Below, one piece after another: positions 2,548-28,111 of a DNA stretch of 44,446 nucleotides (positions are counted from its first letter, which is position 1; each line of letters opens with the position of its first letter). The position numbers and the translations under genes are program-made. The notes beneath the pieces are model-generated. The model saw only the letters and a program-made list of their open reading frames with translations. It made no database searches and was not told where the DNA came from. The DNA is from a candidate division WOR-3 bacterium (GTDB lineage Bacteria > Hydrothermota > Tepidihabitantia > SM23-42): contig DAOVAN010000003.1 in the NCBI GenBank assembly GCA_030671005.1, forward strand, positions 1-44,446, in the 5' to 3' direction.

Positions 2548-2560
2548 ATACTTCCTCCTT

Positions 2561-3796: not shown

Positions 3797-3811
3797 ATCC
3801 TCCTTAATGCC

Positions 3812-4102
3812 TCATAAACCTTTCTTAGCTTTTAAAATAATCTGTCCACTATAACTCAAATCAATAACCAACGTTTCCTCAATTCCCAGCAAATTCAATT
3901 TCTGTAGCAAATGCTTCTTCTTCTTCAGGTCATTGGTGCCCAAAACATATCGAACACCCTTGTATTCAACAATTCCATCCTCCCTAGATACTACTTCTCC
4001 ATCAGGTATCACCTCATCCAAAACTACATACTCGTCACGTTCTCGCAGAAGCCCAAACATGAAGACCACGCCAACTATGATCAGCAATAGCACAACAATC
4101 AT
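3812..4102 (-). CDS. Small bitopic membrane protein, probable minimal FtsQ/DivIB
   Basis: N-terminal TM helix; C-terminal VIDLSYSGQIILK resembles the FtsQ C-terminal (Y/V)IDLRY motif; occupies the ftsQ position between murB and ftsA; ATGA-type overlap with the murB stop. Confidence 0.65.
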   Translation of the reverse strand: MIVVLLLIIVGVVFMFGLLRERDEYVVLDEVIPDGEVVSREDGIVEYKGVRYVLGTNDLKKKKHLLQKLNLLGIEETLVIDLSYSGQIILKAKKGL

Positions 4103-8498: not shown

Positions 8499-9780
8499 TC
8501 GTGAATGCCTCCCCTCTTTCCTCGAAGTTACCGAAATAGTCAAATGACGCAAACCCCGGGTTGAGCATGATAGTGTCTCCGGGACATGCATAATTTCGTG
8601 CCTTCTTCACCGCATCAACCATGTCCTGAGCAATCGAGTACTGTTCATATCCGTGTGCTTGGAAATGCTCCGTGATGAAACCTGCATTCTCACCGAGTAT
8701 GACACATGCCTTTGCCTCTTTTATTAAAACATCAAAATATGCCTTACCCTCATCTCCCTTGTGCTTGCCCCCCAAGATGACCACCCTCGGTCCTTCGAGT
8801 GCTCGAAATGAGGCAATGGCAGCCGTCGCATTCGTACACATAGAATTATTTATGTATCGTATCCCATGGATGAATCCAAGGTCTTCCAGACGGTGTGATA
8901 GACTGCTAAACGCCTTAATACCTCTTTCAATATCCACGTCGTCGATATTCAAGATCTTAGCCACCGCTATTGCCGCCGCCATATTCATGAGATTATGTTT
9001 GCCCACCAATGGCAAATCTTCGCTTGAGAATAGTTCGCTGTCTTCATAATGGAATTTCCCGTTGATCGATACTCCCTCTGTTGTCCCATAACCAAAGAAA
9101 ACGGGACGTGACTTAATGCCACCCCCTATACTGCGCACCCACTCATCGTCGTAGTTGAGAACCGCAAAATCATCTTCTGTCTGGTTTAAAAAAATTCGCA
9201 ACTTTGCGGTCTTGTACTCATCAAAATTCTTGTGCCAATTCAGATGATCAATGCTCATGTTGGTGAACACGGCAACATACGGACGGAAATTATTGATACG
9301 CATCAACTGAAATGAAGAGACCTCGAGGACGTAGTACTCGCATTTCTCTCCAAAAAGGGCTTGAGAAAACGGTTTTCCAGGCGCAATATTGCCACCGAGG
9401 AAATTCTTGATATGTACCATGTCCAGAATGTTGCTTATCAACGCCGCGGTCGTGCTCTTACCGTTGGTGCCGGTTACCGCAATGGTTCTTGGTCGACCCA
9501 GCTCCCGATATGCAAACTCGATCTCGTCTATTATCGGCACTCCCTTTTCCTCCATGGCCTTGCATATGGCTTTATCGGGCGGAAATCCGGGTGACGTAAC
9601 AACGACGTCATACTGCTCATCATCATGTACCTTCACGTGGCCATCATTGATCAGCTGTTGCGCCGGTTCGGACAAACCCTCCATATTCTCATCGTAGAAG
9701 AATACACCCTCACCTCTCTGCACGAGATATCGTGCAACCGGTAGATTCGCGCGTCCCAAGCCTAGTAATAGAATCTTCAT
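8479..9780 (-). CDS. murD: UDP-MurNAc-L-Ala--D-glutamate ligase
   Basis: VTSPG, TGTNGKSTT, GGNI, EVSSFQL, DHL, HRLE, PGFASFD.F.NFEERG. Confidence 0.96.
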   Translation of the reverse strand: MKILLLGLGRANLPVARYLVQRGEGVFFYDENMEGLSEPAQQLINDGHVKVHDDEQYDVVVTSPGFPPDKAICKAMEEKGVPIIDEIEFAYRELGRPRTIAVTGTNGKSTTAALISNILDMVHIKNFLGGNIAPGKPFSQALFGEKCEYYVLEVSSFQLMRINNFRPYVAVFTNMSIDHLNWHKNFDEYKTAKLRIFLNQTEDDFAVLNYDDEWVRSIGGGIKSRPVFFGYGTTEGVSINGKFHYEDSELFSSEDLPLVGKHNLMNMAAAIAVAKILNIDDVDIERGIKAFSSLSHRLEDLGFIHGIRYINNSMCTNATAAIASFRALEGPRVVILGGKHKGDEGKAYFDVLIKEAKACVILGENAGFITEHFQAHGYEQYSIAQDMVDAVKKARNYACPGDTIMLNPGFASFDYFGNFEERGEAFTNAARKD

Positions 9781-9784
9781 ATAA

Positions 9785-10870
9785 TCATCTGATCTTCAAT
9801 GTCGACAGGGCAAACATCAGGAAGATGATGCCCACGATCCAGAAGCGCACCACGATTTTCGGCTCGACCAGCCCCTTCAGTTCAAAATGGTGGTGCAACG
9901 GGGCCATCTTGAATAGCCGTTTACCGCCGGTGCAACGAAAATAGATCACCTGGAGCAAAACCGTCAGCACCTCAATCACGAAGACACCGCCAACCAACAA
10001 TAAGAGGATCTCCTGTTTAATGAGAATCGCCGCGGTACCGATGATTGCACCAAGACTCAAGGCCCCGGTGTCACCCATGAACACCTGAGCCGGATGTGCA
10101 TTGAACCACAGAAACCCAAGGCTTGCTCCGAGAATCGCAGCGCAGTATACTGTTACTTCACCCCCCTGCCTAAGAAATATTATGTTCACATACTCGCTTA
10201 TCACTACGTGTCCTGCCGCATAAGCGAGTGCGGCATAGGCAAGGGCGGCGACTCCAATGAGGCCGATGGCGAGACCGTCCAGCCCATCAGTCAGGTTGAC
10301 ACCATTGGAAGAACCGATCACTACCATGACGACGAATATCGGATAGAGCATGCCAAGGCTTATGACATAGTTCTTCACGAAAATGAGGTTGGTCTTGGCA
10401 GCGTAACCCTCAGGTCCAAAAAAATACAAGAACAATCCGAGCGCTAACCCATACATTATTTGAAAAATCAGTTTCGTCTTTATCGATAGACCGCGTGGCT
10501 TTTTCTTGTATATCTTAACATAGTCATCCCAAAAGCCCAGCAATCCGAAATATATCGTCGCCGTGAAGAGTATTAAAACATTCGTGTTACCTAAATCACA
10601 AAAGAGAAAAGATGATATCAGAATGGAGAAAAGTATCAGGATACCGCCCATGGATGGTGTTCCCTCCTTCAAGCGGTGACTATCCGGCACCTCCATCCTG
10701 ACCCGTTGTGTAACCGATTTGTTGGCCAGCAAATTTATGAACCACTTGCCAAGAATGAGCACAATGAGAATCGCGAAGACTGCCGCGTAAGCACTACGGA
10801 ACGTAATATAGCCGAAAAGCCTTAACGGTCCAAAATAGTCCTTCAGTGGATACAAAAGCCAGTATAGCAT
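9785..10870 (-). CDS. mraY: Phospho-MurNAc-pentapeptide transferase
   Basis: GTPSMGG, DDY.K, NLTDGLDGL, VFMGDTG, MAPLHHHFEL. Confidence 0.98.
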   Translation of the reverse strand: MLYWLLYPLKDYFGPLRLFGYITFRSAYAAVFAILIVLILGKWFINLLANKSVTQRVRMEVPDSHRLKEGTPSMGGILILFSILISSFLFCDLGNTNVLILFTATIYFGLLGFWDDYVKIYKKKPRGLSIKTKLIFQIMYGLALGLFLYFFGPEGYAAKTNLIFVKNYVISLGMLYPIFVVMVVIGSSNGVNLTDGLDGLAIGLIGVAALAYAALAYAAGHVVISEYVNIIFLRQGGEVTVYCAAILGASLGFLWFNAHPAQVFMGDTGALSLGAIIGTAAILIKQEILLLLVGGVFVIEVLTVLLQVIYFRCTGGKRLFKMAPLHHHFELKGLVEPKIVVRFWIVGIIFLMFALSTLKIR

Positions 10871-10921
10871 ATTATCTCGCCTGTTCTCTTACCGACAAAA
10901 TTGTCTCAATGAAAGATTTCT

Positions 10922-12202
10922 TCACCGCAACAGCCTCGGTAGCTCATCGATGAATCTCTCGAAATGAAGTGCTCTTGACGCTTTGAGCAGAACGACCTCA
11001 TCACCTGCGATGTTTTCACGCAGAAACCTTAGCAAATCTATCGCCTTAGAAAAATGCGTGCCCTTGTAGTATCTCGATTCTTGCCCGAAAGTCACCAGCA
11101 AGTCTGCATGCTGTCTCGCGTATTCGCCAGTGGCCCGGTGCAACTCCTTTGACTTCTCACCCAACTCAAGCATATCGCCAAAGACAAATATCTTCCTCCG
11201 CCCCAACTGTGCAGCAAAGTCGATCGCCGCCTTCATCGACACCGGGTTTGCATTGTATGTGTCATTTATTATCAACAACTCACCCAGTGTAATTGGTTCC
11301 AGACGCCCCGGCTCCGGATTCATCTCGGCGATACCTGCATACTGCGCATCATAATGGATGCTCAGTTTCGAGGTCAAACAGACCGCGGCTAGACAATTGT
11401 ATACGTTACCCAAGCCGAGCAGTTGTGTGAAGAACCGATTTCCTTCATATGAGAAATAGGATCCACGTTCAGTCAGCTCCACACTGTCCAACATTCCTAA
11501 GAAGAAACTGATGGTGTTGCTTCTACCCGACCCGCTAGCTCCCTCGCCAACCAGAGCGAAACCATCAGCGGGGAGTGCATCTATTAAGGCAAATTTCTCC
11601 TTTCGGATACCTTCGATCGAGCCGAGACCATCAAGATGACCAGGACCTATGTTAGTGATCACGCCGATATGAGGGCGTGCAATGTCACACAACCGGACTA
11701 TCTCTCCAGGGGCACTTGTTCCCATCTCCACCACCAAGTAGTCTTCATCCCCGGACAGCCTGAAAACCGTTAGGGGCAGACCGATGAGTGAATTGTAATT
11801 CTTCTCCGTATGTAATACCCGATACTTCTTCTTCAGGATCGACGCAATCAGATTCTTCACCGTTGTCTTCCCGTTCGTCCCGGTAATGCCAACGGTCTGT
11901 ACCTCGAAATGATTCCGATAATTACGGGCGAGTTCGCCCAAGGCAAAAAGCGTATCTGAAACCAATATCTCATTGGTCATCGATTGTGTCCGCTGGACAA
12001 CTGCTGCCAGTGCACCACGCCGCAAGGCATCTGCTACATAGCAATGTCCATCAGTGTGCGACCCCTTCAAGGCAAAGAACAGTTCGCCGGGCATTGTCTC
12101 CCGGGAGCTTATCGTAACCCCACGCACAAGATCCTGCCCGGGCAATTGTGCCTGACCATTCACCATCTTGACTATCTCCCCTAGCATGAACTCGCGAAAC
12201 AT
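10922..12202 (-). CDS. murF: UDP-MurNAc-tripeptide--D-Ala-D-Ala ligase
   Basis: TGTNGKTTVK, NYNSLIGLP, EMG, NDTYNANP.SM, GDMLELG, LLKASR. Confidence 0.96.
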   Translation of the reverse strand: MFREFMLGEIVKMVNGQAQLPGQDLVRGVTISSRETMPGELFFALKGSHTDGHCYVADALRRGALAAVVQRTQSMTNEILVSDTLFALGELARNYRNHFEVQTVGITGTNGKTTVKNLIASILKKKYRVLHTEKNYNSLIGLPLTVFRLSGDEDYLVVEMGTSAPGEIVRLCDIARPHIGVITNIGPGHLDGLGSIEGIRKEKFALIDALPADGFALVGEGASGSGRSNTISFFLGMLDSVELTERGSYFSYEGNRFFTQLLGLGNVYNCLAAVCLTSKLSIHYDAQYAGIAEMNPEPGRLEPITLGELLIINDTYNANPVSMKAAIDFAAQLGRRKIFVFGDMLELGEKSKELHRATGEYARQHADLLVTFGQESRYYKGTHFSKAIDLLRFLRENIAGDEVVLLKASRALHFERFIDELPRLLR

Positions 12203-13605
12203 GCTTTGATCACCTCGGCATCGTTGAACTTGAACCTCTCTTCATTGACTATCTGATACTCCTCATGTCCTTTGCCGGCAACAACAACAATATCCTCTTC
12301 TTTTTTGGAGGCGATGGCATACTGGATCGCGGCAGCACGATCTTCGATTATCTTGTGATTACTACCTACCACGCCCTGCATGATATCATCTATGATCTGT
12401 TTAGGCGGTTCGCTGCGCGGATTATCTGAAGTTATCACTGTCAGATCGGCGAGTCTCGAGGCAATAGCACCCATCTTCGGACGTTTATTCTTATCACGAT
12501 CTCCGCCACAACCGAAGACAATTATCACCCTACCCTTGGCATATTGCTTCATCGATTGGAGGATGTTCTCTATCGCCGATGGTGTGTGAGCGAAATCGAC
12601 AAAGACATTGTCCATGACGCGTTCTAACCGTCCCCGCACCGCATGCAAATCCTCGATACCTTTTATGATGTCTTCTATACGGACACCCAGTGCGACGCCC
12701 GCCGCAAAGGCAGCCAGAACGTTATAAATGTTGAATTCACCAACCAAAGACGTCCTCACCTCATAGCTTTCGTTGTCACAATGAATTTCCAGTTTAGAAC
12801 CATTGAGGGATCCATCGAGTACCCGCGCCATTATGTCACTCTCTCTCGCTACACCAAATGATATCATGTTTGTTATCCGCAGGTCTTTGACCGATCTGCC
12901 AATGTCCTCGTCATTGTTGTACACGGCATACCCGCTTTCCTTGAGCAGTGAAAATATATGCAGCTTCGATTGCTGGTAATCATCCATCGTTTTATGAAAA
13001 TCGAGGTGGTCCTGAGTTAGATTTGTGAAGACGGCAACGTCGAAAACAATATTTTCCACGCGCTTCAGCTTCAGGGCATGTGAAGACACTTCCATCACCA
13101 CTGAATCGATCCCCTCGTTCTCGAAGTTCTTGAACAACTTCATGATATCCAGAATCTCTGGTGTCGTACGGACCGCCTTACTCCTTGCCCCGCCCAGATA
13201 ATAGATTGTTCCTATCAGTCCCGGGCTTCTTCCCGCTCGCGTCAATATCGAGTGAATGAGAAATGCCGTGGTCGTCTTTCCGTTTGTGCCCGTGATACCA
13301 ACCTTAGTCATTCCACCAAAGTCCCCGTAGAACCGTGTGGCCAATATGCCCAATATCTCACGGGTGTTATTGACTATGATCTGAGGTAACGTTGTCTCGA
13401 CCTTCTCCTGGGTAATGACTGCCACGGCTCCTCGTTTTTCCACATCCCGTATGAAATCATGTCCATCGAACCTTTCTCCCTTCATCGCGACATACAATCC
13501 CCCCGGCTTAATCTTTCTTGAATCGAATTCAACCGTAGTAATCTCGACATCCTTAAGGTTATGAGTCTGTGCAGGTATACCTGCAATCAATTTACTTAAC
13601 TGCAT
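12181..13605 (-). CDS. murE: UDP-MurNAc-dipeptide--meso-DAP ligase
   Basis: TGTNGKTTT, MEVSSH, DHLDFH, DFAHTP, FGCGGDRD, DNPR (DAP-type motif), GKGHE. Confidence 0.97.
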   Translation of the reverse strand: MQLSKLIAGIPAQTHNLKDVEITTVEFDSRKIKPGGLYVAMKGERFDGHDFIRDVEKRGAVAVITQEKVETTLPQIIVNNTREILGILATRFYGDFGGMTKVGITGTNGKTTTAFLIHSILTRAGRSPGLIGTIYYLGGARSKAVRTTPEILDIMKLFKNFENEGIDSVVMEVSSHALKLKRVENIVFDVAVFTNLTQDHLDFHKTMDDYQQSKLHIFSLLKESGYAVYNNDEDIGRSVKDLRITNMISFGVARESDIMARVLDGSLNGSKLEIHCDNESYEVRTSLVGEFNIYNVLAAFAAGVALGVRIEDIIKGIEDLHAVRGRLERVMDNVFVDFAHTPSAIENILQSMKQYAKGRVIIVFGCGGDRDKNKRPKMGAIASRLADLTVITSDNPRSEPPKQIIDDIMQGVVGSNHKIIEDRAAAIQYAIASKKEEDIVVVAGKGHEEYQIVNEERFKFNDAEVIKACFASSC

Positions 13606-15217
13606 AGCGATGGGAGTTCATTTGATATATGCTATGGGCAATGTCTCTGAATACGGGTGCCGTGATCGTACTTGCCCAGTAACCACTCTTGGGCTCGTCA
13701 ACCATAAGGATTATCAGATAGTCTGGCGAAGCAGCCGGAAAATACCCGGCAAAGGTAGTGATGATAGAGCTGTTTGAGTAGGTACCATCGACAACCTTCT
13801 GTGCGGTTCCTGTCTTGCCCGCGATCTTAATGTCATTGAACGCGGCCGCGGTACCACTCCCCTCCTCGACAACGGTACAGAGTATGTCGGTCACTCGGCG
13901 TGCAGTCGGCGCATTGATTACACGTCTGATCCGTAGTGTCTTAGTTTCGTAAACAACTCTCGGGCCTCTTCGAATTTCGCGTACAATCGTAGGTTTGTTC
14001 AGCACGCCGTCATTAGCGATCGCCTGGTAAGCCATTGCCAGCTGAAGCAGGTTCACCGTGAGACCTTGACCAAAGACAAGAGTGGCAAACTCAACATCAT
14101 TGATCTTCATGCCATCGGGTAATCGACCCCGCACCTCGCCCGGAAATTCAATACCGGTGACTTCTCCGAAACCAAAATCCCGCACCATGAGGAGAAAACG
14201 CTCACGATCGAACTTCCTTGATAACTTGACCATCGCAACATTGCTGGAATGAGCAATCGCCTGTCTCAAGGTGACAATGCCGTAGTCTCTATAATCATTT
14301 ATCAAATGGCCGCGCACTCTTATCTTTCCATCCTCGGTATCGATGATATCGGCTTCTTTTACGCCGTTCTGTAGAGCGTAGGTGAGGGGCATCAATTTGA
14401 AGGTCGATCCGGGTTCGAATTCATCGCAGATTATGTGATTTCTCTGATCACCGTCCTTACCAACATTGACCATGGCAAGGATATCCCCGGTGCCCGGTTC
14501 GATAATCAAACCGCACGCCGACTGCGCGTCTTCGCTCCGGTGACAATCACTTAGGTTTTTGTGAAGAATTGCCTGCAACTGGAGATCGATGGTCAGGTAG
14601 ATATCCCTGCCCGGCCGCGGTTCTTTCTCGGGATGATTATGATACGGAAAAATCCCGCCCGTCGGGTCCTTCTGATATATCGCGAATCCTGTCTCACCGC
14701 TAAGAATGTCATTGAATTGCAACTCCAGGCCTTCGATGCCACGATTATCTGAACCGCATTTGCCAATGAGGCTCGCAAAGATCTCGGGCATGTTATACCG
14801 TCGATTTAAATCATGAGTATATCCAATACTGGGGTCATCAATTGCAAGATATCGGTCACGTTGTCTTTTATCCACCTTCATCTCCACCCAAAAGAATTCA
14901 CGGCTGCCAATCTGCTTCTTGATACGACTCCTCGATTTCCCGGAAACCTTTGCAATCTCACGCGTCAGCCTGCCGACGTCACCGGCATAACGCGGCGTGC
15001 AGAAAACTGAAAAACATTGTTCAGATGTAGCAATGGCCACACCGTTACGATCATATATGTTACCTCTTGCTCCCAGCAGCACAAACTTTTTCTCGTGCTG
15101 CCGCTTGGCTCTATTTTCGTAGTACTGATGTTTGAAGCATTGTATATAAAAAAGGTAGGAAAAGAAAACAACCGAGACAAAAAAGAGGAGAAAATTTAAA
15201 AACTTCGTCCGGATCAT
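13592..15217 (-). CDS. ftsI: Class B penicillin-binding protein FtsI/PBP3
   Basis: RG.IYDRNG, G.EGLE, EPGSTFK (SxxK), SSN (SxN), KTGTAQK. Confidence 0.94.
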   Translation of the reverse strand: MIRTKFLNFLLFFVSVVFFSYLFYIQCFKHQYYENRAKRQHEKKFVLLGARGNIYDRNGVAIATSEQCFSVFCTPRYAGDVGRLTREIAKVSGKSRSRIKKQIGSREFFWVEMKVDKRQRDRYLAIDDPSIGYTHDLNRRYNMPEIFASLIGKCGSDNRGIEGLELQFNDILSGETGFAIYQKDPTGGIFPYHNHPEKEPRPGRDIYLTIDLQLQAILHKNLSDCHRSEDAQSACGLIIEPGTGDILAMVNVGKDGDQRNHIICDEFEPGSTFKLMPLTYALQNGVKEADIIDTEDGKIRVRGHLINDYRDYGIVTLRQAIAHSSNVAMVKLSRKFDRERFLLMVRDFGFGEVTGIEFPGEVRGRLPDGMKINDVEFATLVFGQGLTVNLLQLAMAYQAIANDGVLNKPTIVREIRRGPRVVYETKTLRIRRVINAPTARRVTDILCTVVEEGSGTAAAFNDIKIAGKTGTAQKVVDGTYSNSSIITTFAGYFPAASPDYLIILMVDEPKSGYWASTITAPVFRDIAHSIYQMNSHRYAVK

Positions 15218-15465
15218 TCAACCACCCCTAATATGTCATCTCTATCAGGAAAGACATAGCCCATCGCCTTTGCCGCGGTTTCGATATCGGCGAGATTGGC
15301 AAGACCGATCAATTCAAATTCCAATTGTTTCTTCTCGTTTCTCAATGCGACAACACGATTTTTCAAATCTTCCTTACGCACCTCGCTCTTTACCAGTTCG
15401 CTCTCAAGGAGCACGAGCAAGAACAAGTATGCTATAACACCTACAAATATTATGAGCACACGCAT
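15214..15465 (-). CDS. ftsL: Cell division protein FtsL-like
   Basis: TM helix plus leucine-zipper coiled coil and IE..AK.MG motif; lies between rsmH and ftsI. Confidence 0.75.
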   Translation of the reverse strand: MRVLIIFVGVIAYLFLLVLLESELVKSEVRKEDLKNRVVALRNEKKQLEFELIGLANLADIETAAKAMGYVFPDRDDILGVVE

Positions 15466-16337
15466 TTTTCGATAACCCTCAACTTCGCACTCCGCGCGCG
15501 CGGGTTCCTGCTGATCTCGTCTTCATGGGGTTTTATCACTCTCTTGTTGAGCAACTGAATCTGACCCTGTTTTTTCAGCCCGCGGAAGAAGTACTTCACG
15601 ATCCTATCCTCGCCCGAATGATATGATATCACCAGCATTCTGCCCCCGTCCTTGAGCCTTCGATATGCAACAAGCAAGCCCTGCCCCAGATTCACCAGCT
15701 CATCATTCGTCCAGATTCTCAAGGCCTGAAAGATCTTGTGCAGGTTCTTCTTCAGAAACCGCCTCGGCACAGAATCCTCAATCACCTTTCTCAGTTCCAG
15801 GGTTGTGTTGAGTGTACGTCTCATCTCAAAAATCCTATGCCCAATCTTCCTGTAATTGCGCACGTCACCATATTCCCTGAGGATCCGTACAATCTCTTCC
15901 TTCTGCGCCCTACGCAACCTCTCGCCGAGGGTGAGGCTGTTCGGTGACATACGCATCAGTAAATCGCCCTTTCTCTCAAAACTGAAACCGCGGGCCGACG
16001 TCGTGAGTTGGTGATATGAAACACCCAGATCAAAAAGCAAGCCATCAACCCTGTGGACCTTTAGCCCGTCAAGGATTAAATCTAGATTAATGAAGTTATT
16101 TTCGAAGAGAAAACACCGCTTGCGGTAATCAGCCGTCACCTGCCGGCTGTAAGCGATTGCCTCCGGATCACAATCAATACCGACGAACCGGGCCGTTCTC
16201 GTGCGCTTCAACATGACGAGGAGGTGTCCGGCACCGCCCACTGTGCAATCGCAGTACACACCATCGTCCCTCAGGTTAATCCAGGTAACAATTTCATCTA
16301 CCAGAACAGGTTGATGAAAAACCTGCTGCCGTGCCAT
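15450..16337 (-). CDS. rsmH: 16S rRNA m4C1402 methyltransferase
   Basis: HQPVL, DCTVGGAGH, DLGVS, RGFSF, FQALRI..N.EL, ISYHSGEDR, NPRARSAKLR. Confidence 0.97.
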   Translation of the reverse strand: MARQQVFHQPVLVDEIVTWINLRDDGVYCDCTVGGAGHLLVMLKRTRTARFVGIDCDPEAIAYSRQVTADYRKRCFLFENNFINLDLILDGLKVHRVDGLLFDLGVSYHQLTTSARGFSFERKGDLLMRMSPNSLTLGERLRRAQKEEIVRILREYGDVRNYRKIGHRIFEMRRTLNTTLELRKVIEDSVPRRFLKKNLHKIFQALRIWTNDELVNLGQGLLVAYRRLKDGGRMLVISYHSGEDRIVKYFFRGLKKQGQIQLLNKRVIKPHEDEISRNPRARSAKLRVIEKCVCS

Positions 16338-16340
16338 CAA

Positions 16341-16682
16341 CTAGGCAAAGCTCTTCAGTGCGGCTCTACGTGATGGGTAGATCTCAAATGGGTAAAAGCC
16401 GTATAATCTCAGGATATCGTACAAGTACGGTGATACATTTACAAGCTTTATATCACCTCCGTACTTCTTGAATTTTTGTTGGTATTCAATAAGCCAACCA
16501 ACAACTTTGTAGTTAATGTGACTCACCCGTGAAAGGTCTATGATTATGTTGAAATCACCATCTTCAATCATTTGCTTCAACTTCTGCTCTATTTTGGAAA
16601 ACCCCTCCTCATCGATTTCACCACTGGGTAAGAAAAACGATACCTTCTTATCCTTAACAGCCTCAACTGCTTGTATTTTCAT
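16341..16682 (-). CDS. STAS-domain (anti-sigma-factor antagonist-like) protein
   Basis: SGEID, IIIDLSRVSHI, GGDIKLVNVSP...DIL, terminal AALKSF; size typical of SpoIIAA/RsbV. Confidence 0.85.
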   Translation of the reverse strand: MKIQAVEAVKDKKVSFFLPSGEIDEEGFSKIEQKLKQMIEDGDFNIIIDLSRVSHINYKVVGWLIEYQQKFKKYGGDIKLVNVSPYLYDILRLYGFYPFEIYPSRRAALKSFA

Positions 16683-17145
16683 CTTTCCTCCTTCTCAAAC
16701 CTTCGATGCCCTCGGCATCCTCCAAATAGAATTTCTCGACCTCCTTACCAAACGCCTCATAGTTTTCAGGAGACCATAATTCAATGTAGTTGATCTCGCC
16801 AACGATAATGACCTCTTTGGCAATGCGGGCATGAGTGAGTAGGAAATCTGGGATGAGGATTCTTCCTTGTCCATCGAGTCGATCCTCTTTTATGCCGAAC
16901 GTGAAGTGTCGTCGATACCGACGGGACTTGAGATAATCCATGGAAAGAGAAAGCATTTCTTTGTCCTCGATCTCTTCCCAAATTCTCAGCGGGTATACAG
17001 CTACTTCCCGGTCATAACCAGGTGTAAGAATTACCCGGCCTTCAGACTCGTGATTCAGAATGCTGCGGAATTGGCTCGGTACGGCCAGGCGTTTTCGGTC
17101 ATCCAAGATATGAGTGAAGAATCCCCGGAATCTAATGTTCCCCAT
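16663..17145 (-). CDS. mraZ: dcw transcriptional repressor MraZ
   Basis: Two DxxxR motifs (LDDRKRLAVP, LDGQGRILIP) and IELWS; first gene of the dcw cluster; ATG 17145 preferred to GTG 17160, which abuts the -10. Confidence 0.93.
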   Translation of the reverse strand: MGNIRFRGFFTHILDDRKRLAVPSQFRSILNHESEGRVILTPGYDREVAVYPLRIWEEIEDKEMLSLSMDYLKSRRYRRHFTFGIKEDRLDGQGRILIPDFLLTHARIAKEVIIVGEINYIELWSPENYEAFGKEVEKFYLEDAEGIEGLRRRKDENTSS

Positions 17146-17166
17146 TGTTCCCCATTTCACCCCATT
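17140..17166 (-). promoter_or_regulatory. Probable MraZ operator, 3 x AATGGGG at 10-bp period
   Basis: CCCCATT on + at 17140, 17150 and 17160; matches the phased TGGG/GTGG repeats known for MraZ sites. Confidence 0.85.
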
Positions 17167-17378: not shown

Positions 17379-18635
17379 TCATTCGGTCTTCTTGAGCCTT
17401 GCTGCAAAAACACCATCCGTGTTATAATCGCACGGCAGGACTTTCAGAAAGTCATCACCCTGTGGAGTAAAATCATTTGCAGGCTCGACTACGAAATTCG
17501 GATTGCTTTTAAGAAAAAGGGTAATGACATCTTCATTCTCATCTGGCAGAATACTACACGTTGAGTATATCAACGAACCACCGACGCGCAGGTAATGGGC
17601 TGCGTTCGTCAGCAAATCATACTGGAGTTTGGCCAACCTGGTGACCACCTTTTTGTTCACACGATCCTTCACCTCGGGTCTCTTGGCAATAACACCCGCA
17701 TTCGTACAGGGCGCGTCCACCAGCACTTTGTCTACACCTTCGAGTTTGTAGTAACGCCCATCTGCGATAACCGGTCTTATGACACGAATGCCCAATCGAA
17801 CCGCGTTGTCCACCACTAACTTGAGTCGTTCATTACTGATGTCTACCGCAATGACCATGCCTTCATTTTTCATCATCTCGGCCATGTATGTTGCCTTGCT
17901 ACCGGGTGCCGAGCACAGATCGACTATCCTCTCTCCTGGCTTCGGGTCCACCAGATGGCATACCAAACCCTGTGCTTCATCATGGATAGAGATATCCCCT
18001 TGTTTCATCAGCGGACTGTTGATCACCAAGCTCAGATGGTCGACCGACTTGAATTCAGAAAACCAATTTGCCTGCTTATATTCCAAGCCACTCATTCTTA
18101 ATTTCTCTCTTGCTTCCTCAACGGTGTTTTTCAGAAGATTTATGCGTATATACGGTGTGGGGCGAATCTTGAAACATTCGATGATCTTCTCACCTTCTAC
18201 CTGATATGCATCCATGATCTTTCGAAAGACCCATGCGCGTGGTTCACGTAGCACCTGGACACGCTTATTTCGGATAACACCACGTAGCACGGCATTTATC
18301 AAACCCTTCTCCTTCAGGGTCCGACCAAAATTGACCGCTTCGTTGACGATTGCATAAATGGGAATGCGGTCAAAGAATAGATACTGGTATACAGAAATTC
18401 TGAGCACATTCTTCAGCGTCGCATCGAGCGAAAAGAAATCACCGGTCAGAGTCTCCCTGACTATCTGATCTATCTCTTCACGATGACGCAACGTACCAAA
18501 TGCCAGTTCATTAGCCAGTTGCCGATCTTCATCCTTCATTTCATTCTTCTCGTAGATCGCAGCCAGCGCGTCCTTAAGGTTTTTCCCCTCGTCTACTTCA
18601 CACAGTGCACTAATTGCCGCCTCACGCGCAGTCAT
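17379..18635 (-). CDS. rsmB: 16S rRNA m5C967 methyltransferase RsmB/Sun
   Basis: N-terminal NusB-like domain, DLCSAPGSKA, VLVDAPC, YSTCS..PDENE; follows fmt. Confidence 0.93.
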   Translation of the reverse strand: MTAREAAISALCEVDEGKNLKDALAAIYEKNEMKDEDRQLANELAFGTLRHREEIDQIVRETLTGDFFSLDATLKNVLRISVYQYLFFDRIPIYAIVNEAVNFGRTLKEKGLINAVLRGVIRNKRVQVLREPRAWVFRKIMDAYQVEGEKIIECFKIRPTPYIRINLLKNTVEEAREKLRMSGLEYKQANWFSEFKSVDHLSLVINSPLMKQGDISIHDEAQGLVCHLVDPKPGERIVDLCSAPGSKATYMAEMMKNEGMVIAVDISNERLKLVVDNAVRLGIRVIRPVIADGRYYKLEGVDKVLVDAPCTNAGVIAKRPEVKDRVNKKVVTRLAKLQYDLLTNAAHYLRVGGSLIYSTCSILPDENEDVITLFLKSNPNFVVEPANDFTPQGDDFLKVLPCDYNTDGVFAARLKKTE

Positions 18636-20068
18636 CTTAACACCTCTCCTTTCTCTATACGGTAGCCATTGATGAAATCAAGAGCCGAGATGACTTTCCT
18701 GCCCTCTGGCTTGACCTCACGCAACACGAGCGACCTGTTGCCAGCACCGACATACAATTTCTTGTCTTCCACCGCGAGCAATCCCGGTGGCAATTTCCTA
18801 TCCCCGAGTTCTGCCCGTGTTATCATCAACTCTTTCTTACGAAAACACGTTCTCGCGCCAGGTCGTGGAGACAAGGCACGTATCTGATTGTGTATCTTCA
18901 CTGCCTCTCGCTGCCAATCGATGACCAGCTCTTCCTTTTTCAACTTCGGCGCATATGATGCTTTTGCACTCTGCTGCTTCGTCGTTGGACAATTACCCGA
19001 TTCGGCCGCGCGTAGTACAGCGATGATCATACCAGCACCGAGGTTCGCAAGTTTATCGGCCAGCGAACCGAAAGTGTCATCCTTCTCGATCGGAATCTCC
19101 TGCTGGGCGAGCATGTCGCCGTGATCGATCTTTTCATCCATAAAGAAAATCGTAATTCCGGTCTTGTCCTCTCCGTCCATGATGGCTCTTTGAATAGGCG
19201 CCGCACCCCGATAGCGCGGTAACAATGATGGATGAATATTGATTCCGCCGGACCGGGCGACCTGGAGCAATCGTCTACTGAGAATATGCCCATAAGCAGA
19301 AAGCACAAATATGTCAGGCTCCATCTGCGACAACGTCTTGATGAAATCATCACTATTCGGGTCATCAGGCATATACACATTCAATCCCGCGTTCTTTGCC
19401 CACTGTGCTACTCTCGGTAGAGACGTTCGCAGTCCCCTGCCTCTGGGTCTCGGTTTTGATATGACGACACCTAAGATCTCAAACCCCTCGTGGACACACT
19501 GTGCTATTGGTAATGAGAAGTCAGTGCTGCCGAAAAGCAATATCTTCATCAAGCGTTGCGAATCCTGTGCCTTTTCTGCAATATCTTCCACGTACTTCTC
19601 TACTTTCTCTTTTTCCGTATCCGCTGCGTGATCAATAAACAGAACACCATCCAAGTGATCCAATTCATGCATCGCCGCCCGAGCCAGAATCCCGGTTAGG
19701 TCAAGGACAAAACCCTCATTGTACAAACTCTTTGCATAGACACGGACCTTCTCCGGTCGGGCGATTCTCAAATAGAGCTCAGGAAAACTCAAGCATCCTT
19801 CCTCATCTACTACTTCGCCTTCCTTATTAAGCACAACCGGGTTTATGAAAGCCACGGGCTCTGGCTGTTCTTCGCTCGGGGCTGCATTCATAACGAATAT
19901 CCTATACTCTGAACCAATCTGATTCGCCGCGAGGCCAACCCCATCTTCCTGGAGCATGATTTCTATCAATTTGTCGATCAGTTGGAAAATCTCCTCGCCA
20001 ATTTTCTCCACGGGTGCAGTTTTTTTTCTCAAGTTTGACGCCGGGTATTTCAAAACTGCAGTTGACAA
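18632..20068 (-). CDS. def-fmt: Fused peptide deformylase / methionyl-tRNA formyltransferase
   Basis: N-terminal GVGLAANQIG, EGCLS, HELDHLDG (Def); from M174 FGSTDF, INIHPSLLPRYRGAAPIQRAI, YAPKLKK, IRALSPRPGA (Fmt); no stop between; TTG start with GGAG SD. Confidence 0.92.
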   Translation of the reverse strand: MSTAVLKYPASNLRKKTAPVEKIGEEIFQLIDKLIEIMLQEDGVGLAANQIGSEYRIFVMNAAPSEEQPEPVAFINPVVLNKEGEVVDEEGCLSFPELYLRIARPEKVRVYAKSLYNEGFVLDLTGILARAAMHELDHLDGVLFIDHAADTEKEKVEKYVEDIAEKAQDSQRLMKILLFGSTDFSLPIAQCVHEGFEILGVVISKPRPRGRGLRTSLPRVAQWAKNAGLNVYMPDDPNSDDFIKTLSQMEPDIFVLSAYGHILSRRLLQVARSGGINIHPSLLPRYRGAAPIQRAIMDGEDKTGITIFFMDEKIDHGDMLAQQEIPIEKDDTFGSLADKLANLGAGMIIAVLRAAESGNCPTTKQQSAKASYAPKLKKEELVIDWQREAVKIHNQIRALSPRPGARTCFRKKELMITRAELGDRKLPPGLLAVEDKKLYVGAGNRSLVLREVKPEGRKVISALDFINGYRIEKGEVLR

Positions 20069-20112
20069 TTTCTACTCCGTGTTATTAAACTAGGACTACA
20101 AACCCTTTTACC

Positions 20113-20418
20113 TCAACTACCGCTGGGGTTCAATTTATTTGTGATGTGCCCTTTTTCTAATTCAATCTTCACACCATCTGCGATCAAAAGAGTAATGGTG
20201 TGATCTTTGATATTGGTTATCGTGCCATGGATGCCAGATGAGGTCACAACACGATCGCCTTTCTGTAAATCTGCAACCAATTGCTGATGTTTTTTCTGTT
20301 TCCTCTGCTGCGGTAGAATCAAGAGAAAATAGAAAACGACGAAAATAAGAATCAAGGGCAGCAAACCCATGATCGGATTTCCCTGTCCTGAACTCTGGCC
20401 AATTAAGAAAAAAATCAT
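20113..20418 (-). CDS. yajC: Preprotein translocase subunit YajC
   Basis: FYFLLILPQQRKQK, LQKGDRVVTSSGIHGTI; AAGGAG SD. Confidence 0.93.
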   Translation of the reverse strand: MIFFLIGQSSGQGNPIMGLLPLILIFVVFYFLLILPQQRKQKKHQQLVADLQKGDRVVTSSGIHGTITNIKDHTITLLIADGVKIELEKGHITNKLNPSGS

Positions 20419-20435: not shown

Positions 20436-20463
20436 ATTATACAGATTATAGGAGCTGAGTCAA
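20436..20463 (-). promoter_or_regulatory. Promoter of yajC-def/fmt-rsmB
   Basis: TTGACT-N16-TATAAT. Confidence 0.75.
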
Positions 20464-22194: not shown

Positions 22195-22200
22195 AATGTG

Positions 22201-23661
22201 ATGATAAGTTTTTTACTTTGTTTTTTGGTACACACTACCATCTATCCACAAAACGCAGTATGGGACCATTACACAATAATCCCACCCCTCGGCACCGTGA
22301 AATCAATCGCCGCCTCTAATCTGCATGTCTACGCGATCAGTGACAACTACCTTTTGTTCATAAATAAGCAGAATTTTACTTTCGAAAAGTCAGTATATTT
22401 TAATTGCGAGCCGCGTCTGGTGGGTTATGATCGTTACACCAACGACCTCTGGATAGTCTGCCGCGACACCATCATCCGCTTCACGACAACGACCTACACC
22501 CTGCGCAAGCATCCTATCACTTTCCGGGTATACAGATTTGCCATCGACGCCAGCAATCTGTATGTCGAGACTACAGTGACGACTGAAAAGTATGCCATCA
22601 ATAAAACAACGGGTGCAATATCCAGAGTCAACACCTTCCCCAAAGATCTCTATTGGTATAAGAGAACGACGGCAACTGACATCCGTAAACATCCATTCTT
22701 GAATCCATACTACTATTATGATGATGCTAATATGTCACAACTACCCTTTCAACAATATCCCATAACGGCGCTATACGATGATGGCATGTATCTCTATGTA
22801 GGCACTGACCATTATGGTATTCTAAGATACCACACAATTTCATGGCAGAGTCAACGTATTGTACACGGACCACTGGATGGATTTATCAAGAGGATAAGAA
22901 AAGACGGCGAGACGATATATTTCCTCTCCACGTCAGGACTTTCGTATTTCATACGGGACGCCAAAAACTGGCAATATCTCCGCCTGGACGACATGGCAAC
23001 CGACTTCGTTGTATTTAATAGCGATCTATTTCTCGCAACACGTAACCAAGTCATGAGGACAACTGGGGTGCTCGAATTTCCCTTTAGTGATATGCGTACC
23101 GATATTTTGTCACTGGGCACGGACGACATCAGCATGTACATCGGAACGCGTTCTGGATCGTTCAGAATATTCAAGGGTAGCAACGATGTGCTGCAATTCG
23201 GTCCGGATCGATACGCTGTATATTCTATCTACCCTACTGAAGAAGCTGTGTACTTTGGCGGGGAATTCGCATTATACAAATTCGAAAAAAGCAACGCCGA
23301 ATGGTCAACCGTGCTCAATTTCGGGATCAAGAAAATCGTGGGCATGCATGCTGGGATATACGCACTGGGCACAAACAACCAAATAATCCAATACCGGCCC
23401 GCCGGCTCTGATACGCTCGATGCTGACACCAGCTGGACACTACTGCCATATTTCAATATCTACGATGTTGACGCCGGTGATGAGGTGGTGTATTGCGCCA
23501 CCTACTCGGGCATCTATTATTACGATCCCTCAACCATGCAGTACAGAGTGATATACAATCTACCACGTATCAAGTACGACTACGTCTTTGTTGTCGAAGA
23601 TAACATACTCGCAATAACCGAGGGCACGATATATGCACTGCCCGTGGAACACCGTGATTAG
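22201..23661 (+). CDS. Exported hypothetical protein, probable beta-propeller
   Basis: Signal-peptide-like N-terminus; recurring blade-like motifs LYVGT..G, MYIGT.SG, VYFGG, VYCAT.SG. Confidence 0.65.
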   Translation: MISFLLCFLVHTTIYPQNAVWDHYTIIPPLGTVKSIAASNLHVYAISDNYLLFINKQNFTFEKSVYFNCEPRLVGYDRYTNDLWIVCRDTIIRFTTTTYTLRKHPITFRVYRFAIDASNLYVETTVTTEKYAINKTTGAISRVNTFPKDLYWYKRTTATDIRKHPFLNPYYYYDDANMSQLPFQQYPITALYDDGMYLYVGTDHYGILRYHTISWQSQRIVHGPLDGFIKRIRKDGETIYFLSTSGLSYFIRDAKNWQYLRLDDMATDFVVFNSDLFLATRNQVMRTTGVLEFPFSDMRTDILSLGTDDISMYIGTRSGSFRIFKGSNDVLQFGPDRYAVYSIYPTEEAVYFGGEFALYKFEKSNAEWSTVLNFGIKKIVGMHAGIYALGTNNQIIQYRPAGSDTLDADTSWTLLPYFNIYDVDAGDEVVYCATYSGIYYYDPSTMQYRVIYNLPRIKYDYVFVVEDNILAITEGTIYALPVEHRD

Positions 23662-24456: not shown

Positions 24457-25374
24457 ATGAAGTACGCAGGCCTACTATTACTCATGCCGTTGATCCTGGC
24501 ATTCATGGTGAGTTGTACAAAGGACGAGGACGAGGCGTCGATTCAGGATCTCCTCGAGTCTTCATGGTATGTCGCAAATGGCGCCCTTCACAGTCACGAT
24601 GATAGCACAAATGTCCCCAGAGGCGGCACGAATACGCTTGACCTGGTCGATACCATACCTTATGTCAGGTGGGTACGGTGGATCGAAAGACCCGTGATCC
24701 GTGAATACGACATAGTTGTAATCGGTGACAGCGCCGATGTGACGATACGTGCCTATTTTCATGGCGCACACCCGGGCTATGGTTTCTTCGTCAATAATGA
24801 TCCCATGGGACCGGTTTACCAGCGCGCCATCGCCGACAGCGCAATTCGCAGGGTCAAACTGTGGAAGAACGAAAATGGACGCTGGCGCATCGCAAGCCTC
24901 ACCGTAGCTGATATTTACACTGAAAATACCGATCATCCCGTGACCATTAGCGAAATTAGTGCGCTCGTTGCAAGCCGGAATTACGAATTCATCGTGAATA
25001 GTACGGACACCTATTTCGAGAGAAATGAACTACCCATATTCTATCCCAGCGACACGGTTGAGGTGACTGTCACATGTAGTGCCCAAGACGATTCCACGTG
25101 GGCGTTCCTGCATCATGGCACAGGACACCGACCAGGGTTCGGGCATCATATCCGGCAGCCGTTTTACCGCGAAGACATGAACACCTTCACCCGCACCTGG
25201 ATTATCGCTCATGACAGCATCATTGTCACACCTGCAGTCAGACACAGCGCGGTCGATGTCCTGGGCTGGCAGACTCTGTTTGCTGCCGATAATGCCACAT
25301 ATTATTCACGTGCCTGGTGTCTACCCTACATTGTTTTACAGCCGGGTGAGGAATTACCCGAGGACGAAGAATAA
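24457..25374 (+). CDS. Hypothetical lipoprotein
   Basis: AAGGAGG SD; signal peptide with lipobox MVSC. Confidence 0.8.
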   Translation: MKYAGLLLLMPLILAFMVSCTKDEDEASIQDLLESSWYVANGALHSHDDSTNVPRGGTNTLDLVDTIPYVRWVRWIERPVIREYDIVVIGDSADVTIRAYFHGAHPGYGFFVNNDPMGPVYQRAIADSAIRRVKLWKNENGRWRIASLTVADIYTENTDHPVTISEISALVASRNYEFIVNSTDTYFERNELPIFYPSDTVEVTVTCSAQDDSTWAFLHHGTGHRPGFGHHIRQPFYREDMNTFTRTWIIAHDSIIVTPAVRHSAVDVLGWQTLFAADNATYYSRAWCLPYIVLQPGEELPEDEE

Positions 25375-26034: not shown

Positions 26035-27246
26035 ATGAAAAGAGCGATTATAGGTGTCGGTCTTGTGATACTTGTCACAACGAGCCTATTCTTATGTTGT
26101 GCGCCAAGTCAAACGGTCAAGGAACCGGATACCCAAAAAACAAGTGCTGAGAATCAAGAAGAAGCACAGCAATATTATTCTATTGGCTTTGAATACTACA
26201 AACAGGGTAACTATGACGAAGCAATAAAATATTTCAACAAGGCGATAGAGACGACGCCAGGTTTCTACGCTGCGTACATTGCCAAAGCTAAGGCATACCG
26301 TGCTAAGATGGACATAGTTTCTGCTGAAGCTTCTTATAACGAAGCAAAGAACGTCGATCCAAAAGACCCCCGTGCATACGAGGGTCTCGGTGCTTTATAC
26401 GCTGAATTGAAACGCTTCGGTGAAGCAATGACCGAGTACGAGAGTGGTCTTAGCGTCAATTCAACCAATGTAAACCTACTCAACGGCCTCGGATATGTCT
26501 ACAAAGAACTGGGGCAATACACCAAGTCCATCGATTATTATGACAAGAGTCTCACATATGAACCTGAAAACCTGAGTACTCAGTATGCAATTGCCGACGT
26601 ATATATTCAAATGAATCAACCTGACCGGGCCGTATCATATCTAAAGGACATTGTCACCAAGAAACCCGACAACATGGAAGTCGTTGAGAAACTTGCCGAA
26701 ACGTTGCTCCAGCTGAAGCGATATGATGAAGCAGCCAAAGAGTACACAAAGCTAATTGAGAACAAACCCGACAACTACTACTATCACATAAAATTGGGTG
26801 AAGCGTATCATCGGCAAAAAAAGTATCAAGCAGCAGATCAGGAATTCCAGACCGCCCGCCGCTTGGCACCGGAAAAAGCACTGCCCCTTTACTATCTTGT
26901 TGATTTGAATATCGCCCGGGGTAAATATAGTGCTGCCGAAACGCTCGCCAAGGAAGCTCTAAAAATCGAACCTAACAACCTCTACGCCTACCTGCTATTG
27001 GGCGATATCTATGGTCGCAGGGGTCTTATTGGACGTAATCAATGGGTCAAAAACAAAAGCACAAAGAATTGCAACATATTAAACAACGCCTTGAGCTATA
27101 TGAGATCCGGTATTTCATATTATACGAAGGCAAAACCTGATGCTCAATGCTCCCAGTATTGTACCAATGAGATCAAGCGTCTCAGCAACTTCATCGATGA
27201 ACTCGAGGAAGACAAGTGGTTCTATTGTAAAGGCGGGTCCCAATGA
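26035..27246 (+). CDS. TPR-repeat lipoprotein
   Basis: GGAGG SD before ATG 26035; signal peptide ending LFLC-C; many TPR units (e.g. AYEGLGALY..L.R..EA...Y). Confidence 0.88.
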   Translation: MKRAIIGVGLVILVTTSLFLCCAPSQTVKEPDTQKTSAENQEEAQQYYSIGFEYYKQGNYDEAIKYFNKAIETTPGFYAAYIAKAKAYRAKMDIVSAEASYNEAKNVDPKDPRAYEGLGALYAELKRFGEAMTEYESGLSVNSTNVNLLNGLGYVYKELGQYTKSIDYYDKSLTYEPENLSTQYAIADVYIQMNQPDRAVSYLKDIVTKKPDNMEVVEKLAETLLQLKRYDEAAKEYTKLIENKPDNYYYHIKLGEAYHRQKKYQAADQEFQTARRLAPEKALPLYYLVDLNIARGKYSAAETLAKEALKIEPNNLYAYLLLGDIYGRRGLIGRNQWVKNKSTKNCNILNNALSYMRSGISYYTKAKPDAQCSQYCTNEIKRLSNFIDELEEDKWFYCKGGSQ

Positions 27247-27605
27247 ACAGAGGAATCTCTGGCTTCGGTGCCATATTCCTGATCATCATACTCATGGTCA
27301 TTGGTTATACCGGATATCAAGTCGCTCGCCTTCACTTCAGCCATGGTTCAATAAGTGGAAAGGTCGAGACCATAGTACGCATCGGTCCAGTCCAGAATGA
27401 TGAAATGATACGGGAAGAGTTGATAAGAGCCGCCACAGAAATGAATGTTATGCTCATACCAGAAAACATTTGGATAGATCATTCCAAGTCCGATTCCTTT
27501 CGAATCTGCGTCGAATACGAAGATTCATCGAGCATCTTTGGTGTCTTCACATACAGCCGTAGGTTCAAGGTCGACAAGGTCGCACCTATTCAACTGAATT
27601 ACTGA
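27243..27605 (+). CDS. Small protein with prepilin-like N-terminal helix (DUF4845-like)
   Basis: MNRG followed by hydrophobic ISGFGAIFLIIILMV; ATGA overlap with the TPR gene. Confidence 0.6.
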   Translation: MNRGISGFGAIFLIIILMVIGYTGYQVARLHFSHGSISGKVETIVRIGPVQNDEMIREELIRAATEMNVMLIPENIWIDHSKSDSFRICVEYEDSSSIFGVFTYSRRFKVDKVAPIQLNY

Positions 27606-28111
27606 TGCTGCAGCTACCCGTACTACTGCTAAACCAGAACTACGAACCCCTTACGATCCTCAAAGTCAAAAGAGCAATCGCCCTGCTGATACTAGGCAAG
27701 GTGGATATGATAGAAAAGGAAGATGGAAGGGTCTTGCATGCCGTCACCTTGACCTACCGTGTACCGTCAGTAATCAGATTGAGATACTACGTGCACATAA
27801 AGCGGAAAGAAATCTCTCTCACCAAGAAGAACATCATCAAAAGAGATAATCATCAGTGTCAGTACTGTGGCAAGAGAACGGGTCTGATGACTGCAGACCA
27901 CATCTTGTCCAAAGCACTAGGCGGCGATGAATCATGGGAAAACCTTGTTTGTGCCTGCCATGAGTGCAACAACAAGAAAGGGAATCAGAGTCTGAGGCAA
28001 GCGGATATGCATCTATCGAAGAAGCCAAGAAGGCCAAATTATTTTACTTTTGTGCTCACCGAATTCGGCACACCAAATATAAAGTGGCGTCCCTTTCTTT
28101 TTCAATGTTGA
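27605..28111 (+). CDS. HNH endonuclease
   Basis: VLLLN..YEP, RD..QCQYCG, T.DHI....GG...WENLV.AC..CN..KG. Confidence 0.92.
   Translation: MLQLPVLLLNQNYEPLTILKVKRAIALLILGKVDMIEKEDGRVLHAVTLTYRVPSVIRLRYYVHIKRKEISLTKKNIIKRDNHQCQYCGKRTGLMTADHILSKALGGDESWENLVCACHECNNKKGNQSLRQADMHLSKKPRRPNYFTFVLTEFGTPNIKWRPFLFQC

Follow-up and report, generated by a model that had tools for sequence, protein, structure and literature searches.

A young in-frame fusion of peptide deformylase and Met-tRNA formyltransferase, probably formed by loss of a stop codon, in a candidate division WOR-3 bacterium

Introduction

On contig DAOVAN010000003.1 of a candidate division WOR-3 bacterium (GenBank assembly GCA_030671005.1), the genes for peptide deformylase (PDF; gene def, protein Def) and methionyl-tRNA formyltransferase (gene fmt, protein Fmt), two essential and functionally opposed enzymes of translation, are read as one open reading frame (ORF). 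The locus raises the question of whether this is a genuine gene fusion, how it could have formed, and whether the linkage serves the cell. The window, the whole stretch of DNA analyzed here, comprises 44,446 nucleotides (nt) and belongs to a metagenome assembly of 1.64 Mb in 188 contigs, estimated to be 94.5% complete. An earlier note on this DNA had described a fused protein of 478 amino acids (aa), had suspected a 1-nt indel or an assembly error behind it, and had proposed a fixed stoichiometry and a possible tethering of Fmt to the ribosome. We consider it likely that the locus is a genuine, evolutionarily young gene fusion that arose through the loss of a stop codon and that yields a near-neutral, bifunctional enzyme of 478 aa.

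Domain architecture of the fused protein

The fused def-fmt ORF lies on the minus strand (18632..20068), opens with a TTG codon and runs without interruption for 478 aa to a TGA stop at positions 18634-18632 (ORF list, Pfam and NCBIfam). Its N-terminal deformylase part (residues 1-167; 19568..20068, minus strand) has the length of the stand-alone Def proteins of the closest relatives, and its C-terminal formyltransferase part (residues 174-478; 18635..19549, minus strand) begins at the ATG that starts fmt in two split proteins, P0025 and P0027. Pfam places Pep_deformylase (PF01327) at residues 4-153 (150.4 bits, cut-off 22.8, covering positions 3-155 of the 156 in the profile), Formyl_trans_N (PF00551) at residues 174-351 (134 bits) and Formyl_trans_C (PF02911) at residues 375-470 (76 bits). 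The NCBIfam equivalogs agree, with TIGR00079 (peptide deformylase) scoring 135.9 bits, above its cut-off of 103.95, and TIGR00460 (Met-tRNA formyltransferase) 260.7 bits, above its cut-off of 201.5, over profile positions 1-308 of 315. With both domains above their curated cut-offs, the initial description of an open 478-aa frame bearing three Def motifs and a complete Fmt from M174 (19549-19547) is borne out, and the ORF is confirmed as a genuine in-frame Def-Fmt fusion in which both domains are complete.

The catalytic residues of the two halves are all in place, which makes it very likely, as judged from the translation, that both are active. In the Fmt half, N277, H279 and D315 align to N108, H110 and D146 of the solved chain 1fmt_A, the catalytic residues (Asn, His and Asp) in the formyltransferase fold of Escherichia coli Fmt. 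In the Def half, residues 4-163 align to solved PDF chains, the metal ligands C92, H134 and H138 are all kept, and the translation contains GVGLAANQ (residues 43-50), EGCLS (residues 90-94) and MHELDHLDG (residues 133-141); the PDF motifs are given as G-phi-G-phi-AAXQ, EGCXS and QHEXDHLXG in a 2025 paper in Mol Biol Evol (PMC12690207). The third motif departs from this pattern in that M133 (codon 19672-19670) replaces the usual Gln before HELDH. Because Met occupies this position in all nine aligned sequences (two fused, seven Def-only), it characterizes the lineage of these WOR-3 deformylases and is unrelated to the fusion.

Modeled with AlphaFold2 from an alignment of 134 rows, the protein has a mean predicted local distance difference test score (pLDDT) of 93.6 and a predicted template modeling score (pTM) of 0.68, with a pLDDT low of 65 over residues 161-170. 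In the model, a helix spanning residues 150-170 passes through the position of the former stop codon and is followed by four irregular residues and the first Fmt strand (residues 175-179). The local dip in pLDDT and the pTM value fit two well-folded domains whose relative orientation is uncertain. The protein is most likely a bifunctional enzyme whose two domains fold and work independently of each other.

The junction and the loss of the def stop codon

The junction was said to read T-TGA-TG, the signature of overlapping stop and start codons. These letters are present, as two TGA triplets around the fmt ATG (19546..19551, minus strand) that both lie out of frame; the second forms the ATGA pattern that supplies the def stop in most relatives. 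In frame, positions 19551-19546 and their surroundings are read as Ser-Gln-Arg-Leu-Met-Lys. The decisive position lies upstream, at codon 168 (19565..19567, minus strand), which is CAG (Gln) in the window and marks the point where the closest split relatives end def. From this codon to the fmt ATG there are 18 nt in frame (CAG and five further codons), and codons 168-173 (19550..19567, minus strand) encode the linker QDSQRL, which would correspond to the former stop codon and a 15-nt in-frame spacer between def and fmt. The linker varies among fused alleles at position 172 (R172H, with His in the allele of run X6).

Comparison with stand-alone Def proteins points to the way in which the frame was opened. 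Four such proteins, P0028, P0029, P0030 and P0031 (96%, 90%, 87% and 84% identical to the Def part of the window, respectively), are each 167 aa long; aligned to the window, they match it residue for residue as far as the ...EK[AV] ending at residue 167, and then end. Since the closest split Defs share the frame of the window to residue 167 and stop at 168, the difference between the split and fused states is that of a stop against a sense codon, not a frameshift. TAG is the only stop codon one step away from CAG, so the probable change is TAG to CAG, by which the stop at codon 168 would have been lost and the former spacer turned into the linker QDSQRL. An origin by a 1-nt indel in the def tail, as had been suggested, is not supported, given the match of P0028-P0031 in frame to residue 167 and the contigs from three sequencing runs (see below) that carry no indel. 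P0028 lies on a contig of 2245 nt, and the contig of the 305-aa split Fmt P0025 is recorded as 2245 nt as well.

Codon-aligned DNA of more distant relatives supports this picture. At the position of codon 168, TAG is found in genome G006, TGA in locus L023, AAG in G002 and CAT in locus L021, and the Asp-Ser codons that follow in the window are also present in G006, G002 and L021. The fmt ATG lies 17 nt past position 168, and thus out of frame, in G006, G002 and L023; in L021 the distance is 18 nt, which keeps fmt in frame, and codon 172 is a TAG. The varied stops and spacings mark the end of def as a labile zone in the group. The lineage of the window combines in-frame spacing with the lack of any stop.

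Taken together, these comparisons are consistent with a short series of events. In the ancestor, def and fmt would have shared one frame, with the def stop at codon 168, a 15-nt spacer and then the fmt ATG. A substitution would have removed the stop, with TAG to CAG as the one-step route, after which ribosomes would read on from Def residue 167 via QDSQRL into Fmt and produce one 478-aa polypeptide with both catalytic centers intact. In the resulting protein, the C-terminal helix of Def is predicted to run on for several residues of the former spacer before it meets the first strand of the Rossmann fold of Fmt.

Independent sequence data on the fused allele

The fused allele is not confined to the assembly in which it was noticed. 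Among the 21 sequencing runs listed, 20, from 11 studies with marine-sediment and cold-seep labels, contain all or part of the stretch, and runs with the fused allele date from 2016-2024 and belong to at least three studies. Contigs of four runs from four studies (X1, X2, X5 and X6) were compared over positions 19350-19800. Single Logan contigs of X2, X5 and X6 (studies P2, P3 and P4) span 19540-19570 with no gaps and with codon 168 (19565-19567) unchanged, and each of them carries single-nucleotide polymorphisms (SNPs) of its own; across the three runs, 10 SNPs fall within the 451 nt, 6 of which change the protein. At the protein level, a cluster at 90% identity contains four distinct fused proteins of 478 aa that are 97-98% identical to one another (one from NCBI, which is that of the window itself, two from ENA and one from Logan). 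The contig and protein-cluster evidence overlaps in part, since the X5 contig is 3174 nt long, as recorded for the fused protein P0026, and one of the compared runs may be the source of the window. The fused DNA is nonetheless present in at least two studies besides the source. With indel-free contigs from three runs and four distinct fused proteins, the fusion is no private assembly error, as the earlier note had allowed it might be. The RNA runs among those listed contain small shares of the stretch.

Split alleles and the distribution of the fusion in WOR-3

The 90% cluster that contains the window protein also holds two proteins of 305 aa, P0025 and P0027, which start exactly at M174. Proteins of the two kinds of allele, fused and split, are 96-98% identical. 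Two Logan contigs, of 2245 nt and 2677 nt, carry split alleles. The genus comprises 11 species genomes, with none of the others above 72% identity in the Def part, and the other species (10 of 10) have separate, adjacent def and fmt genes. Where the end of def could be seen in relatives, at 47 loci (19 from genomes, 28 from metagenome contigs), a stop follows Def in all 47, and at 27 of the 42 loci of readable geometry the def stop overlaps the fmt start as ATGA. The names on the relatives' proteins are those of candidate division WOR-3. Since the other species examined are all split and split alleles persist at 96-98% identity, the fusion is young and polymorphic; by these sequences, it is confined to one species-level lineage within which split alleles are still found. 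Uniformly split close relatives had been named in advance as a sign against the fusion. The relatives are indeed split at the species level and above, which marks the fusion as recent, not as unreal. The polarity, with the split state as the probable ancestor, rests on the outgroups P0029-P0031.

A survey of the phylum covered 272 genomes, 157 of which had a match at E<=1e-60, all but the 21 weakest being listed. Among the matches listed, only the genome of the window (G000) matches without interruption across both domains, and in six genomes (G020, G036, G174, G159, G160 and G161) def and fmt share a frame that is broken only by one or two stops. A search of metagenome contigs returned 31 loci, the best of them 69-70% identical, and the contigs of P0029 and P0030 were not among these. 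At locus L002 the fmt ATG directly follows a TAG, and L021 is likewise in frame. The same-frame loci, in the six genomes and one metagenome contig, stand one substitution from the same fusion. Long fmt frames of 458-567 aa in some WOR-3 genomes were considered as further fusions and rejected, being either spurious upstream frames in G+C-rich DNA or of ordinary length; the fmt frames of about 500 aa at loci L135 and L138 (G184 and G191), for example, are Arg/Pro/Ala-rich spurious upstream extensions.

Gene neighborhood and expression signals

The fused gene is flanked in the same direction by yajC upstream (20113..20418, minus strand; Pfam) and by rsmB downstream (17379..18635, minus strand), which encodes a NusB domain and the 16S rRNA methyltransferase RsmB/F (Pfam). 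The TTG start of def is preceded, at a distance of six bases, by a GGAG Shine-Dalgarno sequence (20075..20078, minus strand), and yajC, def and rsmB all have GGAG or AGGAG 5-10 nt upstream of their starts. At M174, only an AGGA is found, 13 nt upstream, and no Shine-Dalgarno sequence at the usual 5-10 nt. The stop-start coupling that is missing between def and fmt is still present at the next junction of the series yajC, def-fmt, rsmB, where an ATGA (18632..18635, minus strand) serves both as the end of fmt and as the start of rsmB. As M174 has no normally spaced Shine-Dalgarno sequence and coupling to def is gone, little free Fmt is expected; M174 would be a weak internal start, Fmt would probably be made mostly as the fusion, and all Def would carry Fmt.

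Transcription signals add little to this picture. A promoter-like site (TTGACT, 16 nt, TATAAT, 11 of 12 consensus positions) precedes yajC (20436..20463, minus strand) as a consensus match only. With 6 such sites found and 4.9 expected from shuffles, their number is not above chance; the terminator count is likewise at chance level. Within def, no promoter-like site was found, the junction shows no significant RNA structure (z-score -0.88), and an Rfam scan of the window returned one tRNA elsewhere and nothing else.

Further downstream, a complete division and cell-wall cluster occupies 1438-17160 on the minus strand, with mraZ, rsmH, an ftsI-type penicillin-binding protein gene, four Mur ligase genes, mraY, ftsW, murG, murB, ftsA and ftsZ. 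On the plus strand, an ORF for an HNH endonuclease (27605-28111) stands between two ORFs devoid of Pfam matches (27243-27605 and 28130-29419). The ORFs at 22198-23661 and 24457-25374 have no Pfam match either.

Def-Fmt fusions in other lineages

The combination of Def and Fmt in one protein is also found in independent genomes, as the earlier note had thought worth searching for. When 1.84 billion representatives were searched, full-length Def-Fmt fusions made up 30 of the 148 best matches of at least 280 aa and were 33-43% identical to the window protein; the query is itself fused, so this list is biased towards fusions. On a FastTree phylogeny of the Fmt part (149 rows), the fused state requires at least 11 changes, at least 3 of them forced by starred branches. 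One clade of 16 rows is fused throughout (starred, 99), and the window protein falls elsewhere, in another starred clade (98) where its 16 companions are unfused. One fused cluster has 29 members from Fermentithermobacillaceae (P0151/P0298; 482-485 aa); it is drawn from NCBI, JGI, ENA and Logan and lies on contigs of up to 630 kb. A genome scan of 80 loci, seeded with the alignment of the all-fused clade, matched a pattern that amounts to just the Def motif and so gives no frequency; at least one of the loci listed, L081 from Candidatus Zambryskibacteria, is fused. Def-Fmt fusions recur in about 30 protein clusters other than that of the window. Among the matches listed to solved chains (60 of 99 at E<=1e-10), none contains both domains in one chain, each matching as a single stretch.

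The cluster points to a gap in annotation: MBP8613512.1, a Fermentithermobacillaceae fusion, is named at NCBI only 'methionyl-tRNA formyltransferase', and its deformylase half is left unannotated. At least one NCBI fusion is therefore filed under the formyltransferase alone. The searches also returned candidate fusions of Def to unrelated Pfam families, namely P0012 (YajC and TGT, 493 aa), P0009 (SGL) and P0010 (CinA). The YajC-Def candidate P0012 is of note, as yajC is the upstream neighbor of def in the window.

Alternative explanations for the fusion

The loss of the stop would most likely have been neutral or nearly so; protein identity between the coexisting fused and split alleles is 96-98%. 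Several points nevertheless weigh against a young, near-neutral fusion by stop loss, or against parts of it. For the closest split strains, we infer a TAG at position 168 and a spacer that keeps the frame from the ends of the proteins and from more distant DNA. The junction was read from Logan contigs, which drop minority variants, and the contigs of X1, the run that contains the stretch best, leave 19427-19563 uncovered, ending at 19426 and at 19564; this gap is evidence in neither direction. The tree of the Def part (10 rows, fused and split) has no starred branches, the fused group needs two changes on the best tree, and the informative sites conflict, position 54 uniting the fused alleles and position 132 uniting P0026 with the split P0028. 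With no supported branches, the tree shows neither that the fused alleles share one origin nor which way the change went within the species. The 6 non-synonymous SNPs among 10 do not indicate strong constraint, in what is a small sample.

Gene content, in turn, makes it plausible that the fused gene is functional. In the 94.5%-complete genome, no second match to PF01327 or TIGR00460 was found beyond the fused gene, and a single PF01327 match is present in every one of the genus's 11 genomes. A second def or fmt may sit in the part of the genome missing from the 188-contig assembly.

One alternative, which we regard as unlikely, is that the fusion was selected because it fixes Def and Fmt at 1:1 and/or lets the Def helix carry Fmt to the ribosome exit. 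The recurrence of Def-Fmt fusions speaks for such an adaptive coupling (30 of 148 matches, at least 11 state changes, an all-fused clade of 16), as do the persistence of the 29-member cluster in Fermentithermobacillaceae and the occurrence of the fused allele in runs of several studies, with at least four protein variants. An enforced 1:1 ratio of Def to Fmt would be a possible consequence of the fusion. Against selection stand the coexistence of fused and split alleles at 96-98% identity and the split state of all other species examined in the phylum.

The tethering component finds no support in the sequence of the Def tail. In E. coli, PDF's C-terminal helix contacts uL22 via L149, K150, R153 and K157 and 23S rRNA via K160 and R163, according to PMC12690207. 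When the Def part is aligned to solved PDF chains with matching residue numbering, E. coli L149, K150, R153, K157 and K160 correspond to T151, E152, K155, Y159 and D162, so that of the five aligned contact positions one is basic (R153, here K155) and two are acidic. The tail after the Def catalytic motif has a net charge of -3, as in the closest split relatives. A helix is present in the model (residues 150-170), but with this tail a basic docking helix of the E. coli type was not found. With contact positions that are mostly non-basic and an acidic tail, the E. coli docking mode is not evidently conserved; the basic helix is a feature of that docking mode and does not define the family. Moreover, Fmt works on free Met-tRNA ahead of initiation and not at the exit tunnel, which is a further argument against the benefit of carrying it there.

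A second alternative, in our view about equally improbable, sees a tolerated defect, in which the stop loss is slightly deleterious, impairs one activity (through steric hindrance, for example, of Def at the ribosome or of Fmt on tRNA) and is kept by drift or by free Fmt made from M174. Its restriction to one species and its polymorphism would be expected of such an allele, the SNPs among fused alleles are mostly non-synonymous (6 of 10), and the old fmt ATG and the AGGA upstream of it are still there. However, no def or fmt besides the fused gene was found in the genome, its catalytic motifs are all intact, and the allele appears in runs from 2016-2024 and at least three studies, where it has gathered further substitutions. 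In PMC12690207, a fusion from Exiguobacterium gave wild-type growth in E. coli.

A sequencing or assembly artefact, with a stop or frameshift separating def from fmt in the true genome, is highly improbable: the fragmented metagenome assembly (188 contigs), the missing Logan contig of X1 across the junction and the existence of split versions at 96-97% identity could be cited for it, but three runs from three studies share the same open, indel-free junction with distinct SNP patterns, and NCBI, ENA and Logan assemblies yield four different fused proteins.

A genuine and recent fusion by stop loss therefore remains our favored reading. We hold more tentatively, as a possibility somewhat short of an even chance, the stronger statement that the sole deformylase of a cell is here permanently joined to its sole formyltransferase, with no back-up PDF, and that fused and split alleles stand one codon apart in the same species. 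Were this so, the species would present a natural experiment on whether linking the formyl-adding to the formyl-removing enzyme affects translation start and nascent-chain processing, and a directly readable case in which one substitution in a stop codon fused two genes of an essential operon. The fused/split pair could serve to probe the effect of linkage on activity, stoichiometry and ribosome association.

Comparison with known systems

The locus reveals no new kind of biology, as the Def-Fmt architecture and its function are already published (PMC12690207), and, with an uncultured marine-sediment bacterium as its host, this fusion of a known kind is a modest curiosity. Its particular points are the readable forming step, the polymorphism within a species and what is apparently the only deformylase and formyltransferase of the cell. 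It offers a nearly step-by-step view of two essential, functionally opposed translation enzymes merging, first in frame with a stop between them and then with the stop lost; the in-frame stage that precedes stop loss is still seen in six other WOR-3 genomes among the matches listed.

The nearest published parallel is Exiguobacterium, in which def and fmt are fused in four reference genomes and a synthetic E. alkaliphilum fusion restored normal growth of an E. coli def-fmt deletion mutant (Mol Biol Evol 2025, PMC12690207). Literature searches found no report of a def-fmt fusion besides this one. In both systems, one coding sequence encodes Def as its N-terminal and Fmt as its C-terminal part. 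The same paper reports that Exiguobacterium genomes retain a second PDF (PMC12690207), whereas no second PF01327 match was found here. Unlike that system, the fusion described here is polymorphic within a species, and its forming step can be read from relatives. A separate origin is indicated by the position of the window Fmt among 16 unfused rows (starred, 98).

The proteins of the Fermentithermobacillaceae cluster and of L081 match the window protein in their three Pfam domains and in the order of these. They differ from it in sequence (33-43% identical) and have other linkers. Among other fused proteins, the Def tail is often shorter, with 21-31 residues from HExxH to the glycine motif of Fmt against 44 in the window.

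The ordinary E. coli-type def-fmt operon, in which the def stop overlaps the fmt start, was reportedly described by Meinnel and Blanquet in 1993. The locus of the window resembles it in the order def, fmt, rsmB, in the use of the same fmt ATG by the split alleles and in the ATGA pattern around M174. It differs in that def of most relatives ends in the +1 frame at this ATGA, whereas def of the window runs on in frame and has no stop. The fusion in the window is a new, independent member of a known, rare architecture.

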